Assembly: GCF_000186885.1 (NCBI RefSeq)
Contig: NC_014972.1
Coordinates: 2,070,001 to 2,102,000 of the forward strand
Length of the DNA stretch: 32,000 nucleotides
Origin: Desulfobulbus propionicus DSM 2032
GTDB lineage: Bacteria > Desulfobacterota > Desulfobulbia > Desulfobulbales > Desulfobulbaceae
Reading direction: 5' to 3'
The position numbers were made by a program, and so were the translations under genes. Below are positions 2,277 through 27,407 of this stretch, one piece after another (the stretch's first letter is position 1; every line of letters begins with the position of its first letter). The notes beneath the pieces are model-generated. The model saw nothing but the letters and a program-made list of their open reading frames with translations. It made no database searches and was not told the DNA's origin.

Positions 2277-3596
2277 TCAATCGAGGAAAAAGCGCAATTT
2301 TTCCCGACGGCTCGAATGGCGCAGGCGATTGAGGGCCTTCTTCTCGATCTGACGGATGCGTTCCCGCGACACATTAAACCGTTTGCCGATCTCTTCCAGG
2401 GTGTATTCGGCCTTTTCGCCGATCCCAAAGCGCAGACGGATAATTTTTTCCTCCCGATCGGTCAAGGTCGACAGCACCTCCGTCACCCGGTGGGCCAATT
2501 CCCGGTTCTGAACCGCATCGTAGGGTGATTCGGATTCCTGATTCTCGAGGAAATCACCCAAGGTAGAATCGTCGTCCCCCACGGGCGTCTCCAGGGAGAT
2601 CGGTTCACGCGAAGCCTCGAGGATGGCCAGGATCTTGTCCATCGGCAGATCGGTCATTTTGGAAATTTCCACCGGGGTCGGCTCGCGTCCCAGCTCCTTG
2701 AGTAGGGAGTAAAAAGCCTTGAAAAACTGACTACGCAGCTCGAGAAAATGCACCGGCAGGCGGATGGTCCGGGTCTTGTCGAGGATGGCGCGGGTAATGG
2801 CCTGCCGAATCCACCACGAGGCATAGGTGGAAAATTTATTGCCTTTTTTGTAGTCAAAACGGAAAACCGCCCGCATCAGACCGAGATTGCCTTCTTGGAT
2901 GAGGTCGGCCAAGGTCAACCCCTGGTGCATGTATCGCTTGGCAATGGACACCACCAGCCGTAAATTGGCACGGATCATCGAGTCCTTGGCAAACTCGATC
3001 GACCGGTTGTAGGCCTCGATCTTGGTCGACAACTCGAACAACTCCCGTTTGTCGGGATAGTTGCGGTTGGCAATGCTGACGCAATGCCGCATGTAGTTCA
3101 ACTGCTGTTTTTTGGGTTTGAGGGTCGGATCACGGCGCTGCCAGAGATCGATCCGATCGACCAGCATTTTGATTTCCGCCACTCCGGACGCATCCTGACG
3201 GATAGCCTCGATGATGGCGTCAAACCCTTCGCGGATGGTTTTGGAATACTTCGCCTCCTCCTCGGGGGTGAGCAGGTCGAACTGGCCCATCTCCCTCAGA
3301 TAGGTGGTGGTGGTTTCCTCGGATTCATGTTCTTCGCTGTCCGGCAAGGTATCGGAAGCGTTGTCTTCCTCACCGCTTTTCTTTCCGGTCCATTCTTCGC
3401 CGGACAGTGTCTTTCTCTTTCCCGATTCTTCCTGGGTGACGATCTCAATATTATTTTCCCCAAGAAAATCGAACAATTCTTCAATAGCTCCCGGATCTTT
3501 TACCTGCTCGGGGAGCAATTCGTTCAAGTGTTGAAATGTGATGCAGCCCTCATCTTTTCCGGCTTCAAGAAGGTCATTTTTTATACCTGCGAGCAC
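2277..3596 (-). CDS. RpoD-family sigma-70 factor (439 aa; group 1/2-like, with a region 1.1-like N-terminus)
   Basis: Region 1.2 reads [16 protein letters not shown]. Region 2 reads [41 protein letters not shown]. Region 4 reads [29 protein letters not shown]. The GTG start at 3596 is preceded by AAAGGAGAAGG. Confidence 0.85.
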   Translation of the reverse strand: [439 protein letters not shown]

Positions 3597-3795
3597 CTGC
3601 CTTCTCCTTTAGTCTGTGCATGAACGCACGAAATAAATTTTTTGGGCAAAAAAGAATAGTATAGTTTAAACCATCCAAAAGAAAATGCAATCAGAGAGTG
3701 TTTTCCATGTAAAAAAAGCGTATAAAGAAAACGCGTTAAAAGGAACGATCCATGAAAAGGCATCTGGCATTTCATTCCGACGGGAATAAACCATA

Positions 3796-5676: not shown

Positions 5677-5824
5677 TTTTCCCTCGCTTTCGTTTTTAAA
5701 TGATAATCGTTCTTCTTGTTTGCCTAAGCGCCGTCCCTTCGAGTATACTTGAACAAATTGCATGGTGCATGCATCAATTTGGGAGACTTCGGTCACCCGC
5801 AACCCATCACCAAGGAGGACTGCC

Positions 5825-7147
5825 GTGAACAAAAAAATGTTGCCACTGCTCCCGCTCTGCCTGATGCTCGGCTTGCTTGCCAGCGGCTGCGCGGGACCCA
5901 AGAATGCCGAGGTCGCCGAGACGCCCGCTGTCCAGCAGGAGATGCAAAAAAATGAACCACTGATGTATGAGGGCGAGATCGCCGGCGTTTCGGAACGGGC
6001 CAAAACCGTCTCCATCACGGTGGGCAAGGGAGAGCAGGCCAAGGTGATGATGGTCAAGTTTGACGACAAGACCAAAGGTGTCAATCAGGCCGCGAAGGGA
6101 CGCGCCGTGCAAATCACCTATGAAATGCGTGACAAGGATGCCTACGCCACCGACATTCAGTTGAAACTGGCCAAATTGCCCGCCGGGACCACTGAAATCA
6201 AAACACCTGAACTGCAACAATTGATCGACGAAAAAAAGCCATTTTTTCTGGTGGATTCCCGTCCGACGATTCGTTACGATCAGTCGCACCTGCCCGAGGC
6301 GCATTCCATCCCTGTACCCTTGCTGGAAAAGAAAGGCGCTGCAGTCTTACCAAAAGACAAAGACATGCCCATAGTTTTCTATTGCGGAGGGCCCACCTGA
6401 GGCATGTCCACTGCCTCCGCCGGTCTGGCGAAGAAATTGGGTTACAACAATGTCCGCGTTTATCTTGATGGCGAACCGGCCTGGTCCAAGGCCAATCTGC
6501 CCACCTATTCCACGACTGAGTTCATCAAGCATGGCAATGTGGTCCTGATTGACATCCGGCCGACCAACAAGGCCATCGCTGGGCGCATCAAGGGTGCCTA
6601 CAGCGTCCCCTACGATATGCTCGAAGACAGGCTCGATGATGTTCCTCGCAACGCCCCCATCGTGCTCTATGGCGACAAAGAAGTATTGCAGGCAATGAGC
6701 GACGTGCGCGAAGAAGGGTTCAATTTTGTTTCCTTGGTCAAAGGCGGCTACCAAGGATGGGTCAAAGCGGGCGGCGAAATTGAAAAGGGGCCGATCTTCA
6801 ACACCGAGATCAAATGGGTGAGGAAACTTGGCAAGGGAGAGGTTTCAGTGGCCGATTTCCGCAAGGCTGCGTCCGGCGAAGACAAGAACGCGATCATCGT
6901 CGACGCCCGCACCAAGGAAGAGGTGGCCGAACTGGGCATATTCAAGAATACAATCAATATCCCGCTGGACGAGATCCCCGCACGGATGAACGAACTTCCC
7001 AAGGACAAAAAGATTTATGTGCACTGCTCCACCGGTGCCCGTGCTGACATGGCTTATAACGAACTGGTCAAACACGGTTTTGACGTGAAGTTCCTCCTGC
7101 TCAATATCAAGGACGCTGAATGCGACTGTGAGATCATCAGGCCTTGA
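5825..7147 (+). CDS. Lipoprotein with three rhodanese-like domains; in-frame UGA (6398..6400) read as selenocysteine
   Basis: The GTG at 5825 lies 6 nt after AAGGAGG. The signal peptide plus lipobox reads MLPLLPLCLMLGLLASGC. ORFs 5762..6400 and 6404..7147 share a frame and are separated only by TGA-GGC. The stop sits inside the rhodanese loop FYCGGPT[TGA]GMSTASAGLAKKLGYNNVRVYLDGEPAW. The second rhodanese domain lacks Cys. The third carries the loop HCSTGAR. Confidence 0.75.
6398..6442 (+). promoter_or_regulatory. Candidate bacterial SECIS element downstream of the recoded UGA
   Basis: The hairpin at 6415..6433 is CUC-CGCC[GGUCU]GGCG-AAG (4 GC pairs, then 2 more pairs after a C.A mismatch). 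A possible lower stem pairs CCA 6408..6410 with UGG 6438..6440. The apical loop GGUCU starts about 25 nt from the U of UGA. As I recall it, this resembles the E. coli fdhF SECIS loop GGUC. Confidence 0.55.
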
Positions 7148-7193: not shown

Positions 7194-7223
7194 GGGGGGC
7201 CGTTCATACGTAAGCGGCCCCCC
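7194..7223. terminator. GC-rich hairpin between convergent genes (possible bidirectional terminator)
   Basis: GGGGGGCCG (7194..7202) pairs perfectly with CGGCCCCCC (7215..7223) around a 12-nt loop. TTT precedes it on the plus strand. It lies between the rhodanese gene stop (7147) and the Hpt gene stop (7248). No strong U tract is present. Confidence 0.45.
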
Positions 7224-7594: not shown

Positions 7595-8230
7595 TTATGA
7601 ATTGAGCAGAATCGACGCGACCCGGGATCGAACCGTGGCAAAGGCAAGTTTGCCTTCACGCAGGCAGGTGAGCGTGGCCCCGTGCAGCCCCACCAATGTC
7701 GAGCCACTGCCGCCCGGGGTGTGGCCACCGTCGAGAATCAGATCAACCTCAGTATCGAAAATTCGTTCCACCTCGTCGGCCGTGACTGCGGCGGGAGACC
7801 CGGAACGATTGGCGCTGGTGGCAGTGATCGGACCGCCAAAGACGTCAATCAAACGGTTGGCTGTTTCGTTGGGGGAGTGACGAATGCCGACGGTTCCGGT
7901 GTTGCCGGTCAAGCGATTGGGCACCGAGGAACGGGCCGGGTAGACAAGTGTCAGCGGTCCTGGCCAGAATGCCTCGATCAAGCAGTTGTAGATCGCCGGT
8001 ATCTCCTCGACCAGCCGGCGCACCTGTTCGTGCGAGGAAACCAATACCAGAATGGGCAGTTCCCTTGCCCGGCGCTTGATTTGAAAGAGACGTTCAAGCG
8101 CCTTTTGATTGAACGGATCGACGGCCAAGCCGTAATAGGTCTCGGTCGGAAAGGCGACCACTCCCCCGGATAGCAAGACGGCGGCGGCCCGATCAAGGTT
8201 TTCCGGGGTAACGGCAAGCGGTGGGTTCAC
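7595..8230 (-). CDS. tsaC: L-threonylcarbamoyladenylate synthase (YrdC/TsaC/Sua5 family)
   Basis: 211-aa ORF with the motifs VVAFPTETYYGLAVDP, WPGPLTLV and ATSANRSG. Its GTG start overlaps the purD-purE stop (GTGA at 8227..8230). Confidence 0.85.
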   Translation of the reverse strand: MNPPLAVTPENLDRAAAVLLSGGVVAFPTETYYGLAVDPFNQKALERLFQIKRRARELPILVLVSSHEQVRRLVEEIPAIYNCLIEAFWPGPLTLVYPARSSVPNRLTGNTGTVGIRHSPNETANRLIDVFGGPITATSANRSGSPAAVTADEVERIFDTEVDLILDGGHTPGGSGSTLVGLHGATLTCLREGKLAFATVRSRVASILLNS

Positions 8231-9993
8231 ACGCCCAAGGCCTTGTTCTTGGCGGCTACCTGCTCAGCCATCTCGCGCACATGCTGCTCAAGTTTGGCAT
8301 GCAGAGACGCATCCTCAAGAGCCAAGATCCGCACCGCCAGCACTGCGGCGTTCTTTGCTCCGGCTTTGCCGATTCCCATGGTGGCGACCGGAATGCCCGG
8401 AGGCATCTGCACCGTGGACAGCAATGCATCAAGGCCGTTGAGCGAGGAAGCATCGAGCGGTACCCCGATGACCGGCAAGTTGGTGTGAGCGGCAAGAACA
8501 CCTGCCAGATGGGCGGCCATGCCCGCACCAGCGATGATAATTTTCAAGCCACGTTCTCGGGCGGTTCTGGCATAGGTCGACGCCTGCTCCGGAGTGCGAT
8601 GAGCCGAGTTGACGCTCAGCTCAAACTCGACACCCATCGAGGCGAGAAAGTCGGCGGCGGCTCGCATCACCGGCAGATCGGAATCACTGCCCATCACGAT
8701 GCCCACCAGCGGCCGTTTGTTCAACCGCGCCAGGGCCCGATGCCCGATATCGCGGCGAAAATAGCACCCCTCCCACTTGATCAGATCAACCGCTTGGTAG
8801 GCCCGGTCCAACGCCTCTTTGATCGTTGCGCCGATGGCCGTGACGCCAAGCACCCTGCCGCCGCTGGTAATGACCTGCCGTCCTTTGGTGGCTGTTCCGG
8901 CATGAAAGACTTCGACCCCCCCAACCTTGGCGGCCTGCGCCAACCCGGCGATGGTTTTGCCGGTTACATACTTCCCTGGATATCCCTCAGAGGCCATGAC
9001 CACACAGACGGTCGGCCGAGGATCGATATCGAGCTGGATCCGATCAAGGGTACCATCGATGCAGCCATTGATGATCTCCACCAGGTCATTGTTCAGCCGC
9101 ATCAGCAGGGGCTGGCATTCCGGATCGCCGAAACGGCAGTTGAATTCGAGCACGTTGATCCGGTCGCCATCAATCATCAGTCCGGCATACAGCATTCCCT
9201 TGTACGGTCGTCCTTCAGACGCCATGCCGCGTATCGTTGGCAGCATTATTTCCTCCATCACCCGCGTGGTCAGGGCGTCCGTCATCACCGGAGCCGGAGA
9301 ATAGGCGCCCATGCCGCCGGTATTGGGCCCCAGATCGCCTTCAAAGATCGCTTTGTGATCCTGGGACGAGGGCAACGGCAAAACGGTGGTGCCATCGGTA
9401 AAGGCGATGAAAGACGCTTCCTCGCCCTGGAGAAATTCCTCGACAACCACCTGGTTGCCGGCCGCGCCAAAGGCTTTGTCCTTCATGATCAGGTCAATGG
9501 CCTGCTCTGCCTCGGCGATGGTCTGCACAATGATGACGCCCTTGCCGGCCGCTAAACCGTCGGCCTTGATCACGCAGGGCATGTCCATTGTTTTGAGAAA
9601 TTTTTTGGCCGCGCCCCTCTTGGTGAATGCACCGTATCGAGCTGTGGGAATGCGGTATTTCGCACAAAAATCTTTGGTGAACACCTTGCTTCCTTCGAGA
9701 ATCGCTCCCTTGCTATTCGGGCCGAAAATCCGCAAGCCGTTCTCCTCAAAAAGATCAACAATTCCTTTTGCCAGAGGCTCTTCAGGACCGACAATGGTCA
9801 GGTCGATCCGCTCCTTGACGGCAAAATCCAGCAACCCAGCAAGATCACCGGCGGCGATGTCCACACACTCGGCGATGGCCTTGATGCCGGCGTTCCCGGG
9901 CGCACAAACAACCGCTTTAACCGTTTTCGACTGCTTCAGTTTCCAAACGAGCGCATGTTCCCGGCCGCCGCTACCGATCACCAAAACCTTCAT
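8227..9993 (-). CDS. purD-purE: Fused phosphoribosylamine-glycine ligase (PurD) and N5-CAIR mutase (PurE, class I-like)
   Basis: The reading frame is continuous. The PurD part reads MKVLVIGSGGREHALVWKL ... FRRDIGHRALARL. It runs directly into the PurE part, NKRPLVGIVMGSDSDLPVM ... SAHRTPE ... IIAGAGMAAHLAGVLAAHTNLPVIGVP. The ATG at 9993 is preceded by GGAGGGAGGAG. Confidence 0.9.
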   Translation of the reverse strand: MKVLVIGSGGREHALVWKLKQSKTVKAVVCAPGNAGIKAIAECVDIAAGDLAGLLDFAVKERIDLTIVGPEEPLAKGIVDLFEENGLRIFGPNSKGAILEGSKVFTKDFCAKYRIPTARYGAFTKRGAAKKFLKTMDMPCVIKADGLAAGKGVIIVQTIAEAEQAIDLIMKDKAFGAAGNQVVVEEFLQGEEASFIAFTDGTTVLPLPSSQDHKAIFEGDLGPNTGGMGAYSPAPVMTDALTTRVMEEIMLPTIRGMASEGRPYKGMLYAGLMIDGDRINVLEFNCRFGDPECQPLLMRLNNDLVEIINGCIDGTLDRIQLDIDPRPTVCVVMASEGYPGKYVTGKTIAGLAQAAKVGGVEVFHAGTATKGRQVITSGGRVLGVTAIGATIKEALDRAYQAVDLIKWEGCYFRRDIGHRALARLNKRPLVGIVMGSDSDLPVMRAAADFLASMGVEFELSVNSAHRTPEQASTYARTARERGLKIIIAGAGMAAHLAGVLAAHTNLPVIGVPLDASSLNGLDALLSTVQMPPGIPVATMGIGKAGAKNAAVLAVRILALEDASLHAKLEQHVREMAEQVAAKNKALGV

Positions 9994-10143
9994 GCAACAC
10001 TCCTCCCTCCGAATTGTTTGATTGGGCACCCATCGATCTTAATGGCGCTCTTTCTAATAAATTATTTCTGTTCTCGTCCAGCAAAATCATCCGGATTTCA
10101 TGTATGTCTTCTCTGTCACCGCACCGGAAAACCGCCATTTTTC

Positions 10144-19002: not shown

Positions 19003-21876
19003 ATGTCTATTGAAGATGATGAAATATTGCAGGGTTTTATAGAAGAATCGCTTGAGCATCTGGCTGATATCGAAAACGACCTCCTTGCCATCGAAGAAGG
19101 AGGCGCCGACATCGATGTCGAACTGGTGAACAAGGTTTTCCGCGCCGCCCACTCGATCAAGGGCGGGGCAGGTTTCATGGGGTTGACCGTTATTCAGGAT
19201 CTGGCCCACGCCGCCGAGAATGTGCTTGGTTTGATCCGCAGCGGCAAACTGGTGCCCAATCCGGATATCATCAACGTACTCCTGCTCGCGGCCGATGAGT
19301 TGCAGCACCTGATTGAAGATGTCGGCAACAGCAACAGTGTTGACATCTCCCGCCACACCGCGGCACTGAACGCCATCTTTGAAGGCGGCGAGGCACAACC
19401 GGCGGCGGCGAAATCCGAACAGGTCAATAAAGCGGTCTCGCCGTCCGAACCTGAACCGACTCAGCCGAGTGAATCTATCGAAGAGACGACCGTAAACTGT
19501 GAAGAAGAAAGCGGCGAAGAGGCGATGCTGGAAGTCGATGAAGACGGGAACGATGACCATGAGGGCGAGATGCCGGAAACAACGGCGGTGGAAGCCGGGC
19601 GCTCACGGGCTCGCAAGTCTTCAGCCAGCACCCAGAAACCCGACACCAGCATTCGGGTCACGGTCAGCCTGCTCGATCAACTGATGAATCTGGCTGGAGA
19701 ACTGGTTCTTTCCCGCAATCAACTCTTGCAGACCATCACCTCCGGCGATGTGCGCAACGCGGAAGCCGTCGGACAGCGGATCGACCTGGTCACCTCCGAA
19801 CTGCAAGAGGCGATCATGCTGACCCGCATGCAGCCCATCGGCAACGTCTTCAACAAATTTCCGAGAGTTGTACGCGATCTGTCGAAAAAATTGGGCAAAC
19901 AGATCGATCTGACCATCGTCGGCAAGGATGTCGAACTGGATAAGACCATCATCGAGGCGATCAACGATCCTCTCACCCATCTGGTCCGTAACTCGGTTGA
20001 CCATGGTATCGAGGCACCCGAAGAACGAATCCAAAAAGGCAAAGATGTCCGCGGTCTGATCGTTCTCAAAGCCTACCATGCCGCCGGACAGGTGGTGATC
20101 GAGATCAGTGATGACGGCAAGGGCATTGATGGCAACATGCTGGCTGAAACTGCGGTCAAGAAAGGGTTGATCACTGCGGACCAGGCCAAGGTCATGTCGG
20201 AAAAAGAGCGGATCAACCTTATCCTGTTGCCCGGTTTTTCCACCGCTAAGAAGGTGACCGACGTTTCCGGTCGGGGCGTGGGCATGGATGTGGTCAAAAC
20301 CAACCTCGACCAGTTGGGCGGTTCGATCGAGATCGAATCCGAGGTGGGCAAAGGTTCGACCATCAGCATCAAACTTCCGCTTACCCTGGCGATTATTCCC
20401 TGTCAAATCGTCATGACCGGCGGTGAGCGCTACGCCATTCCCCAGGTCAACCTGGAAGAACTGCTGCGCATTCCAGCCTCCAAGGTTAAGGAACGGGTGG
20501 AACGGGTGGGAGATGCCGAAGTTGTCCGCTTGCGTGGCAACCTGCTGCCCCTGATTCGCATGGCCGAGGTGTTCGATATTGATCGGACCTATTACGATCC
20601 GATTGAAGAACAAACCAAACCTGACCGCCGGCGCAATATCGCTGACCGGAGGTCCAAATCGACGCCGCTGTTCAGGGAAGAGGGGGCACCGCAGCCCCAA
20701 CCCAGAAGCGATGAGCAGGATCGAAAGCGAAAAGAGGAAGAGCGGCGGCAAAGCCCTTCAAGCGCCCTGAATATAGTGGTGGTGTCCACCGGTGCCATGA
20801 AATACGGCCTGATCGTTGACCGCTTGCACGACTCCGAAGAAATCGTCATCAAGCCCTTGGGTCGGCACCTGCAGCAATGCCAGGGTTATGCCGGCGCCAC
20901 CATCATGGGCGATGGCCGCATCGCCTTGATCCTTGATGTTTCCAATATTGCCCGCATGGCCGGCCTGACCTCGCTTGACGGTTCCGAACGGGCCACCGAA
21001 CTGGCCGAGGCCGCCAAGGAAGCCATTACCAAAACCCGCGACAAGCAGGCGCTACTGACCTTCTCCAGTTCCGCCATGGAGCAATTCGGTGTGCCGCTGA
21101 ATCAAGTTGAGCGGGTTGAGAAAATTAAACGCAACGATATCGAAGAAATCGGCGGCCGAAGGGTCATGCAGTATCGCGGCGGCAGTTTACCGCTGATCAG
21201 TATCGACGAGGTGGCGTCAGTGATGCCGTTGGATGATCGGGAAGATCTTTTGGTGATTGTTTTCCGCCTTGCGGGCAAGGATGTCGGTCTGCTGGCGATA
21301 GGCCCTATCGATGCCATTGAAATATCGGCTGAAATCGATGACGTTACCCTTAAGCAACCCGGCATCATGGGATCGGCGATCATTGGCGGCAAAACAACGA
21401 TGCTCGTCAATATCTTTGAAATCATGAAGATTTCCAATCCACAATGGTTCGAAGATCACGCCGCGTACGCGGAGATCGAAACCGACGAAACCCAGGCGCC
21501 GACCATTCTGATCGTTGAAGATTCCAATTTTTTTCGCAACCAGGTGAAAGGGTACATGGAGGAAGCGGGATTCAACATTCTTGAGGCGGAAGACGGTAAA
21601 ATTGCCTGGGACATCCTTCAGGAGCATGGCGACAGCGTCACAATGGTCGTCACCGATATCGAGATGCCCAACATGGATGGGTTCACCTTAACCGAAAAGA
21701 TCAAGGGCGATAAGCAGCTTAGACATACACCGGTCATCGCCCTGACCACGCTGGCCGCGGATGAGGATATTGCCCGGGGCAAAGCTGTCGGCGTCGATGA
21801 ATACCACATCAAACTCGACAAGGAACGGCTGATGGAAAGCGTGCACAGGTATGCAAAGGCCGCCATGGCCTCTTGA
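19003..21876 (+). CDS. cheA: Hybrid chemotaxis histidine kinase CheA (HPt - dimerisation - HATPase - split CheW-like P5 - second CheW-like domain - receiver)
   Basis: 957-aa ORF. P1 reads [17 protein letters not shown]4 contains [23 protein letters not shown] and GRGVGMDVV. The first CheW-like module starts [13 protein letters not shown] and the second starts [23 protein letters not shown]. The receiver reads [10 protein letters not shown]...[19 protein letters not shown] lies upstream of the ATG. Confidence 0.9.
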
Positions 21877-26090: not shown

Positions 26091-27407
26091 GGGTTTCTTG
26101 AAAATTAAATGCAGTAGCCTGCGACAAGTTTAACTATCAAATTGTTGATTTTGTGTAAATATGTTACATTCTTCATCGTTTTAAGGCCGCATCCGCCAAC
26201 CATCACCCGATGGAGATCAGCCATGATCCAGCCCGGCTTTTTTGATTTGCAGGACCGATTGCACAAAATCGACAAGAACGGCGACCCACTTGCCAAGATC
26301 AACGAGACGGTCAACTGGGAGATGTTTCGTCCTGCGCTCGAAAAGGCCAGGGACAAGGGCCGGCAGTCTACGGTCGGGCCGAAGGGGTACGACGTCATCC
26401 TGCTGTTTAAGATTCTCATCCTGCAGTCGTTGTACAATCTGTCGGATGACGCGACCGAGTTTCAGATTCTCGACCGGCACTCCTTTGGGCGCTTTCTTGG
26501 TCTGCACATCAGCCAGAAGGTTCCCGATGCCACCACCATCTGGCGTTTTCGGGAAGACCTCGTCAAGGCCGGCATTGTAGAGGAACTGTTTGCGACCTTC
26601 GATGCGCATCTCCGGGACAACGGCTTCATGGCGATGAAAGGGCAGATCGTGGATGCCAGCATTGTCAGCGTGCCCAAACAGCGGAACAGCCGGGAGGAAA
26701 ATGCCCGGATCAAAGAGGGCGACATCCCGGAGAACTGGTCCGAGAACAAGCGGCGTAGAAAAGACGCGGACGCGCGCTGGACCAAGAAGAACGGCAAGTC
26801 TTATTACGGCTACAAGAACCACATCTCGGTGGATGTGAAGCACAAGTTGATTCGCAGCTATGCCGTGACCGATGCGGCCCTGCACGACAGCAACGTGTTC
26901 GAGCAACTCCTTGCCGACAATACGAGCAAGGACGTCTGGGCGGATTCGGCCTATCGATCCGCGGATCGATTGGAGCGCCTCGGCCAGGATGGTTTTCGTG
27001 AACACATCCAACGCAAGGGGAGCCGCAATCGTCCCTTGACGCCCAGAGAACAGGAGGGCAACCGAACCAGATCCAAGGTCCGTTCGCGAATCGAGCATGT
27101 CTTTGGTGTACAGGCGCAGCGAGCGGGGAATGTACTGTTGCGCACGATCGGCATAGCCCGAGCCCGAGCAAAGATCGGCTTGCGCAACTTGGTGTATAAC
27201 ATTGACCGAATGGGGATGCTTCTGGCTGCAAGCAGGTGAAGTGTGCCCGGAGTGCGGCAAACTGGCAAAAGACCGCCATCGAGCACAGAGCGAGGCACCG
27301 CCAAGGTGCAAAACCGATCGGATTAAAAGCCAGAAGAGCATGGTCTTTGTGAATAAAATTGTCGGTGAATGGTGCCGGGGCTTGCTAAGCTAAATTTCAA
27401 GATTCCC
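26091..27407 (+). mobile_element. IS5-family insertion sequence (1317 bp) with imperfect terminal inverted repeats and a 4-bp TTAA target-site duplication
   Basis: The left end is GGGTTTCTTGAAAATTA. The reverse complement of the right end is GGGAATCTTGAAATTTA (14 of 17 identical). TTAA is present at 26087..26090 and at 27408..27411. The element carries a single DDE transposase gene. Confidence 0.85.
26223..27239 (+). CDS. IS5-family DDE transposase
   Basis: 338-aa product from the ATG at 26223 (GGAG upstream). Its layout matches E. coli IS5 transposase: an N-terminal DNA-binding region (LLFKILILQSLYNLSDDATEFQILDRHSFGRFLGL), then GQIVDASIV, YGYKNHISVD, VWADSAYRS and RSRIEHVFG, which are candidate D, D and E residues. 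Confidence 0.9.
   Translation: MIQPGFFDLQDRLHKIDKNGDPLAKINETVNWEMFRPALEKARDKGRQSTVGPKGYDVILLFKILILQSLYNLSDDATEFQILDRHSFGRFLGLHISQKVPDATTIWRFREDLVKAGIVEELFATFDAHLRDNGFMAMKGQIVDASIVSVPKQRNSREENARIKEGDIPENWSENKRRRKDADARWTKKNGKSYYGYKNHISVDVKHKLIRSYAVTDAALHDSNVFEQLLADNTSKDVWADSAYRSADRLERLGQDGFREHIQRKGSRNRPLTPREQEGNRTRSKVRSRIEHVFGVQAQRAGNVLLRTIGIARARAKIGLRNLVYNIDRMGMLLAASR

Follow-up and report, generated by a model that had tools for sequence, protein, structure and literature searches.

A stretch of 32,000 nt from Desulfobulbus propionicus DSM 2032 (NC_014972.1, positions 2,070,001 to 2,102,000; hereafter the window) contains two consecutive open reading frames (ORFs), 5762..6400 and 6404..7147, which are interpreted here as a single gene for a rhodanese-type selenoprotein crossed by an in-frame UGA codon. 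As an initial annotation of this DNA had described, the two ORFs share a frame (both starts are 2 mod 3) and are parted by the TGA at 6398..6400 and one GGC codon at 6401..6403, with nothing else in between; the coordinates and the joined translation, which reads ...PIVFYCGGPT before the stop and GMSTASAGLAKKLGYNNVRVYLDGEPAW... after it, agree on this point. The proposed gene spans 440 codons on the forward strand (5825..7147), with a GTG start, the TGA as selenocysteine (Sec) codon 192 and a true stop TGA at 7145..7147. The GTG at 5825 was also claimed earlier, and indeed it follows, after a 6-nt spacer, a Shine-Dalgarno sequence AAGGAGG that can be read directly at 5812..5818 of the forward strand. 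Close orthologues keep an AGGAGG at equal spacing together with the GTG start.

In GenBank and RefSeq this gene is split into Despr_1804 (191 aa; ADW17954.1/WP_015724495.1), whose GenBank start is also the GTG at 5825, and Despr_1805 (247 aa; ADW17955.1/WP_015724496.1). The 247-residue downstream ORF is 100% identical to a D. propionicus entry named 'Rhodanese domain protein', and no mention of Despr_1804 or Despr_1805 was found in a literature search. An orthologue from Desulfocastanea catecholica is represented in a recent RefSeq record (WP_459944181.1, P0539) only by a 251-aa fragment that follows the UGA. The mis-annotation as two genes, suspected in the initial annotation, is real, systematic and ongoing in current pipelines.

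The joined protein has been found to match the Pfam family Rhodanese (PF00581) in three stretches, with 140.1 bits against a gathering threshold of 22.2. The best stretch, residues 128-222, crosses the stop at residue 192; the stop thus lies inside a rhodanese fold and neither ORF encodes a whole domain, as had been proposed. Because the two ORFs share a frame and the stop falls within the Pfam match, 5825..7147 is almost certainly one gene, not two. For comparison, a genome scan with one genome per species identified 80 orthologous loci, each with the label Desulfobulbales or unclassified delta/Proteobacteria, with Desulfobulbus, Desulfogranum, Desulfofustis, Desulfopila, Desulfocapsa, Desulfoprunum, Desulfosediminicola, Desulforhopalus and Desulfurivibrio as the named genera. 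In these loci the tblastn matches cover residues 1-440, straight over the stop. The active-site motif is present in 78 of the 80, which together with the window gene make up the 79 orthologous genes considered below. Pseudogenes and sequencing errors most commonly show themselves as one in-frame stop, and either could be invoked for this TGA. Both are refuted by the recurrence of this TGA, at the identical codon, in a further 61 independent assemblies that belong to several genera, and both halves of the gene are still protein-like and conserved; the probability of such an explanation is negligible.

The 440-aa product is a predicted exported lipoprotein, and its export signal is conserved. 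The signal peptide (residues 1-22; 5825..5890, forward strand) consists of MNKKMLPLLPLCLMLGLLASG followed by Cys22 (5888..5890), the predicted lipidated residue; it ends in LLASG-C, and L18, G21 and C22 are nearly invariant. The lipobox LLASGC noted earlier is therefore present here, and a PROSITE-style lipobox pattern occurs in 68 of the 79 orthologous genes, but it is not universal: most of the others carry a Cys-containing variant or an AFA/AVA signal-peptidase-I site. Five orthologues (L014, L020, L021, L022 and L032) have a signal of the signal-peptidase-I type (…AFA before E or A, …AVA before A) without the lipobox Cys, and would be soluble periplasmic variants. Since a few lineages carry an AFA/AVA site in place of the lipobox, export seems to be general and lipidation usual.

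In an AlphaFold2 model of the protein (mean predicted local distance difference test, pLDDT, 82), a beta domain of five strands precedes three rhodanese domains, all encoded on the forward strand. The N-terminal all-beta domain (residues 46-113; 5960..6163) is modelled with a pLDDT of about 80-90 and is conserved in full-length relatives; it has no Pfam match, and NCBIfam returned only a weak hit to lipo_LytA. Rhodanese domain 1 (residues about 122-227; 6188..6505), to which the Pfam stretch 128-222 corresponds, contains the loop C187-G-G-P-T-U192. Cys187 (codon TGC, 6383..6385) is the canonical catalytic Cys: it is invariant in 33 of 33 aligned proteins and aligns with C401 of domain 3. We take C65 of GlpE to be its counterpart there as well, with Sec192 falling five residues past the catalytic Cys. 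Sec192 is the sixth and last residue of the active-site loop and aligns with Arg406 of domain 3. Since Cys187 is retained at the catalytic position, Sec192 would not be the canonical catalytic residue, and the site of domain 1 is best read from the alignment as a Cys/Sec pair, C-x4-U, rather than as Sec in place of the catalytic Cys. Domain 2 (residues about 237-320; 6533..6784) has no active-site Cys (LYGDKE) and matches the rhodanese structures of Alr3790; with YGD in place of the Cys, it has the appearance of a non-catalytic module. Domain 3 (residues about 339-425; 6839..7099) contains the loop H-C401-S-T-G-A-R, with the Cys codon at 7025..7027, so that a catalytic Cys occupies the first position of the six-residue loop in domains 1 (C187) and 3 (C401), and is missing from domain 2. 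The earlier description of one Sec-, one Cys-less and one Cys-rhodanese is right in the number of domains and in placing Sec in the loop of domain 1, but this domain also keeps its catalytic Cys. Finally, the tail DAECDCEIIRP includes the motif C433-D-C435 (7121..7129, forward strand), which is found in 79 of 79 orthologous genes and modelled with a lower pLDDT of about 58-66; distant relatives carry C-x(3-4)-C or finish in ...EGC. This C-terminal CxC motif suggests a mobile cysteine-bearing arm.

The nature of the UGA codon can be judged from relatives of the protein. A search of 5.8 billion proteins returned two kinds, some of about 440 aa that match the whole query and others of about 247 aa that start exactly past the stop. 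A Cys occupies the stop position in all 32 aligned full-length relatives (46-81% identity), within the motif FYCGGxTC(P/G)xS, and the codon at this position in the 79 orthologous genes is TGA in 62 and TGC or TGT in 17. The initial annotation had placed a Cys here in homologues, which is borne out in both sets. Each Cys form runs as one ORF of about 440 aa. When 1.84 billion cluster representatives were searched with a profile, 367 clusters had E < 1e-30, many of them of 420-470 residues and with the same architecture, among which CGGxxCxxS is common. Several further 50%-identity clusters start at profile position 193 or stop at position 190, which suggests that they are more Sec forms.

Alternatively, the TGA could be a genuine stop, and the locus would then produce a 191-residue lipoprotein fragment and a 247-residue protein re-initiated at the ATG at 6404..6406 (Met194) by means of the GGAGG at 6386..6390. 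This GGAGG derives from the Gly-Gly codons GGA GGN and lies 13 nt before the ATG. The public annotation does show two genes, the ATG at +6 is invariant in TGA forms, and the GGAGG precedes it in 37 of the 62 genes with TGA as against a single one of the 17 with Cys. On the other hand, the GGAGG is missing from 25 of the 62 TGA forms, whereas the 13-nt element described below is present in all of them; a ribosome-binding site for a second gene is thus not conserved in orthologues, in agreement with the single gene proposed initially. Furthermore, neither product would have a whole domain 1, because the split falls within its active-site loop, the second product would be devoid of a signal peptide, and the Cys forms run as one ORF. 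Production of two polypeptides is therefore highly improbable. As for the GGAGG itself, chance codon bias may account for it, or it may act as an internal Shine-Dalgarno-like pause site close to the UGA.

Downstream of the UGA lies a candidate selenocysteine insertion sequence (SECIS) element, whose core hairpin CGCC-GGUCU-GGCG (6418..6430, forward strand) is formed by a 4-bp stem (CGCC 6418-6421 and GGCG 6427-6430) and the loop GGUCU (6422-6426). The 13-mer starts 17 nt after the TGA and its loop starts 24 nt from the U of the UGA, close to the estimate of about 25 nt in the initial annotation. In D. propionicus the hairpin is lengthened to 6415..6433 by the pairs C6415-G6433 and U6416-A6432. 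This longer form, which is the one originally pointed out, exists, but it is found in only 17 of the 62 TGA forms and the conserved part is the 13-nt core alone: an identical 13-mer, CGCCGGTCTGGCG, is present in 62/62 TGA forms and in 0/17 Cys forms. In a codon alignment of the 62 TGA genes, mean third-position identity is 0.524 over 408 columns, and the invariant third positions are those of the TGA, one Met, three Trp and five consecutive hairpin codons only. These five are the sole degenerate codons with invariant third positions in the gene. A natural control is offered by the TGC form at L085 (3571-3606), which encodes the identical peptide GMSTASAGLAKK yet without the hairpin: TCC GCG GGT CTT GCT instead of TCC GCC GGT CTG GCG, three synonymous changes that break the stem. 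This gene looks like a recent Sec-to-Cys conversion. Because the 13-mer is found in all TGA forms and no Cys form, its codons are invariant, and it has decayed in L085, the constraint acts on the RNA, and only when the codon is UGA. That the hairpin 6418..6430 behaves as expected of a SECIS element is strongly supported by these comparisons.

The hairpin can also be compared with the SECIS element of E. coli fdhF, which we take to contain the loop string GGUCU one codon nearer to the UGA than here. The bases of the fdhF loop contact SelB. Both elements have a hairpin soon after the UGA and, presumably, an apical GGUCU; unlike that of fdhF, the one described here has an invariant stem of 4 bp without a bulged U, the distance from the U of the UGA to its loop is 24 nt instead of 21 nt, and a lower helix exists in some lineages only. 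bSECISearch expects the apical loop to contain a G and to lie roughly 16-37 nt from the UGA; this holds for CGCC-GGUCU-GGCG, although its fold energy itself is not significant. It might be argued that the UGA is read through without Sec machinery, for instance as Trp or Cys by a near-cognate tRNA, and that the 13-mer has some other role at the RNA level. In fact, the inserted residue is not deducible from the sequence alone, and classical SECIS elements of bacteria are longer than this hairpin. However, the UGA alternates with Cys codons only, the hairpin is present exactly where UGA is and decayed where UGC replaces it, and its loop is presumably shared with fdhF. In addition, D. propionicus DSM 2032 is listed as a Sec-utilizing organism for which 8 selenoproteins are known (Peng et al., 2016; PMC5029168, Table S2). 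Such read-through is very unlikely, and the UGA at 6398 very probably encodes selenocysteine. Another selenoprotein gene is found nearby in some relatives: 12 related loci hold a further gene that is likewise crossed by a conserved in-frame TGA and is homologous to a biochemically proven selenoprotein.

Rhodanese-type selenoproteins have been catalogued since 2004-2008, and a 2026 review lists five forms (PMC13188914), so that the family itself is not new, as was already stated in the initial annotation. In that list, form 1 corresponds to PF00581 with UxxS (Geobacter WP_010941598.1), forms 2 and 4 to UxxG, form 3 to NF041203 with CxU, and form 5 to TsoB (NF045694) with UxxxxU (PMC13188914). 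The window protein resembles the catalogued forms in having Sec in or beside the rhodanese active-site loop, Cys homologues and a distribution in Deltaproteobacteria. Its U-G-M-S is compatible with the UxxS of form 1, a likeness of motif alone, and its C-x4-U spacing equals the UxxxxU spacing of TsoB. Membership in form 3 was rejected, since the protein scores 61.9 bits against a cut-off of 115 for NF041203 (rhodanese_LYCAU) and has C-x4-U, not CxU. The same applies to TsoB, for which it scores 55.1 bits against 805 (NF045694), over the rhodanese part only, with one Sec and no DsbD-like region. Because rhodanese selenoproteins are already known, the novelty is limited to a further member of a catalogued group; in the reviews consulted, no exported three-rhodanese lipoprotein with a C-terminal CDC tail was found described.

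Regarding function, the best PDB sequence matches of domain 3 are 3nta, 4ocg, 3icr and 8a56 (E = 6e-11 to 1e-5), the rhodanese domains of the NADH-dependent polysulfide reductase Npsr and of CoA-disulfide/persulfide reductases. These known enzymes (Npsr, CoADR-RHD and CoA-persulfide reductase) handle persulfide or polysulfide; they differ from the window protein in being cytoplasmic flavoenzyme fusions, and it is matched by them in one domain only. A Foldseek search of the PDB with the whole model retrieved generic multi-rhodanese sulfurtransferases, including YnjE, with low template modelling scores (TM-scores). YnjE is a periplasmic three-rhodanese sulfurtransferase of E. coli and Sud a periplasmic polysulfide-sulfur transferase of Wolinella succinogenes, both exported rhodanese-fold proteins that pass sulfane sulfur. 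The likeness to YnjE extends to the three rhodanese domains and to a structural match (2wlr, 3ipo); nevertheless, Sud and YnjE use Cys only and have neither the N-terminal beta domain nor the CDC tail, and the domain arrangement is not superposable (TM-score about 0.2).

The gene neighbourhood adds a different kind of evidence. Clustering of neighbouring genes showed no partner common to all loci. Twelve Desulfocapsaceae/Desulfofustis loci have, directly upstream and on the same strand, a gene for a five-haem cytochrome c (5x CxxCH) with an in-frame TGA; this mccSep-like selenoprotein gene lies at 2415-3758 (forward strand) in L043 and is also present in L044, L045, L051, L052, L057, L064, L066, L067, L072, L074 and L078. 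The cytochrome, with the motif ...HxIPDG-U-PTPNRLVL..., matches MccSep of Geobacter sulfurreducens (PDB 9wt8/9wt9) with E = 1e-149, and its Sec aligns with U325 of MccSep. The sequence past its TGA is also highly conserved (TGACCGACTCCNAACNGGCTGGTCCTGGATGTGACC). A homologue search with this cytochrome returned only close fragments of 319 aa and no named Geobacter entry, the databases storing the fragment. MccSep has been described in a 2026 study as a periplasmic polysulfide reductase essential for the respiration of elemental sulfur (S0), with polysulfide as its preferred substrate and selenite as another one; which periplasmic sulfur-transfer components feed it was left open in that study. 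Since twelve sister loci put the gene directly after an MccSep homologue, a role in periplasmic polysulfide handling, considered plausible from the beginning, gains support.

Another link with MccSep is found in the ext cluster of the Geotalea daltonii type, where the first gene, before extH-extI-extJ-extKL, encodes a 474-aa homologue in Cys form (L081, 1927-3351, forward strand). This protein aligns with the window protein in full length (34% identity over 462 aligned positions, E = 3e-62), has the motif FYCSGPACNMS and carries an N-terminal CMNCH haem-binding motif at the place of the lipobox region. A CxxCH near the N-terminus is also seen in the distant relatives P0358, P0395 and P0397. 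The occurrence of the family beside MccSep in two independent lineages supports, without proving it, a role as an extracytoplasmic sulfane-sulfur carrier or transferase. ExtH (GSU2940), a 49-kDa rhodanese-like outer-membrane lipoprotein, heads the extHIJKL/MccSep cluster of Geobacter (PMC5877670, PMC6148476), and it resembles the window protein in being a rhodanese-family lipoprotein of about 440-450 residues with a genomic link to MccSep. Orthology with ExtH was rejected (BLASTP E = 2.2 and 0.59 against two ExtH orthologues encoded beside extI); ExtH is not reported as a selenoprotein, and in the Geotalea-type cluster the true homologue of the window protein is the other gene, just upstream of extH. 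In the literature on sulfur disproportionation, rhodaneses were found mentioned only generically.

A selenoprotein of this architecture might also serve in the handling of selenium or tellurium oxyanions, or in general periplasmic thiol-redox reactions and detoxification. [quoted passage not shown] Because MccSep also acts on selenite, a role of this kind stays a live rival. Moreover, TsoB, to which the window protein has a sub-threshold hit, joins a UxxxxU rhodanese to a DsbD-like redox module, and the D. propionicus locus has no sulfur-respiration neighbour. On the other hand, MccSep prefers polysulfide as its substrate, domain 3 is like the rhodanese domains of polysulfide and persulfide reductases, and the family is found mainly in Desulfobulbales, some lineages of which disproportionate sulfur. 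On balance, oxyanion handling or general redox protection is possible but rather unlikely.

The explanation that best fits the whole of these data, and that is held with high confidence, is one exported triple-rhodanese Sec lipoprotein, likely a sulfane-sulfur carrier outside the cytoplasmic membrane. Translation would start at the GTG 5825 and decode the UGA 6398 as selenocysteine, SelB-tRNA(Sec) being presumably recruited by the minimal hairpin CGCC-GGUCU-GGCG. From its N-terminus, the product would comprise a lipobox-bearing signal peptide, the small beta domain, the three rhodanese domains and the CDC tail. Its most likely task, beyond the cytoplasmic membrane, would be to carry or transfer sulfane sulfur in the form of persulfide or polysulfide, in analogy with the periplasmic rhodanese-fold Sud, which serves polysulfide reductase in Wolinella. 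A bound sulfur chain would be held or resolved, as a selenenylsulfide or selenopolysulfide, by the Cys187/Sec192 pair; domain 3 together with the CDC tail would serve as relay sites, and the sulfur might be passed to, or taken from, respiratory enzymes such as MccSep. More specifically, the protein might be the missing periplasmic or outer-membrane sulfur shuttle that feeds MccSep, within a respiratory module of two selenoproteins; polysulfide or S0-derived sulfur would then be loaded on Cys187-Sec192 as a selenopolysulfide and delivered to MccSep via domain 3 and the CDC arm. This last, more specific proposal is tentative and, on present evidence, doubtful.

Several observations weigh against the explanation just given. 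At the RNA level, the hairpin is very short (4 bp), and RNAalifold found the 4-bp core alone to be common to the forms, with no covariation in it, because the hairpin never varies. Rfam gave no match, either at the gathering threshold over the whole window or in E-value mode over 6350..6500. When the fold of the region downstream of the UGA was checked, as the initial annotation had suggested, the hairpin was there, but the energy of 6395..6460 was no better than that of shuffled sequence (z = 0.06); the 42 nt from the UGA onward reach z = -2.1, mostly due to a lineage-specific helix beside the UGA. The hairpin alone is thus not beyond chance, and its significance is comparative. As regards the Sec machinery, none of selA, selB, selC and selD lies within the 32-kb window, and no tRNA is found there either. 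On the functional side, the chemistry attributed to the Cys187/Sec192 pair is purely inferential. An MccSep neighbour exists in only 12 of the 80 loci and one Geotalea-type locus, and not in D. propionicus; a terminator-like hairpin parts mccSep from the rhodanese gene in L043. Finally, housekeeping genes flank the gene in D. propionicus and in about half of the loci (MalQ or others upstream; Hpt, Sua5 and PurD-PurE downstream).

The remainder of the window contains other features. Between the convergent rhodanese and Hpt genes there is a G+C-rich inverted repeat, GGGGGGCCG...CGGCCCCCC (7194..7223, no strand assigned), with 9-bp arms and a 12-nt loop. It is a possible bidirectional terminator, not called by a terminator scan (12-nt loop, no T run). 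On the reverse strand, 8227-10029 encodes PurD (GARS) and PurE (AIR carboxylase) fused in one 600-aa ORF, and about half of the related loci keep this fusion downstream of their rhodanese gene. A chemotaxis cluster comprises a CheA-CheW-receiver fusion (19003-21876), MCP, CheB and CheR, and is directly followed by the ORF of an insertion sequence (IS)-type DDE transposase (26142-27239, forward strand). At the start of the window, two adjacent radical-SAM ORFs on the reverse strand (34-2195), with a CofH/MqnC C-terminal region, lie beside an rpoD-like sigma factor gene (2277-3596) and are probably enzymes of menaquinone synthesis by the futalosine pathway.

The gene and dozens of its orthologues are stored as two truncated proteins in GenBank, RefSeq and metagenome catalogues, and no NCBIfam model captures the window protein or its orthologues. 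A family model, together with the SECIS pattern (TGA, 17 nt, CGCCGGTCTGGCG), would allow the bulk correction of the split records. The invariant 13-nt element, conserved across several genera and accompanied by a natural control in a Cys form that has lost it, represents a clean example of how little RNA may suffice for a SelB. In sister lineages, a Sec-containing exported rhodanese encoded beside mccSep is a concrete candidate for the sulfur feeding of MccSep, and this functional link is the part able to raise the importance of the finding. If the protein were indeed such a shuttle, selenium would be structurally required for the respiration or disproportionation of elemental sulfur in Desulfobulbales.

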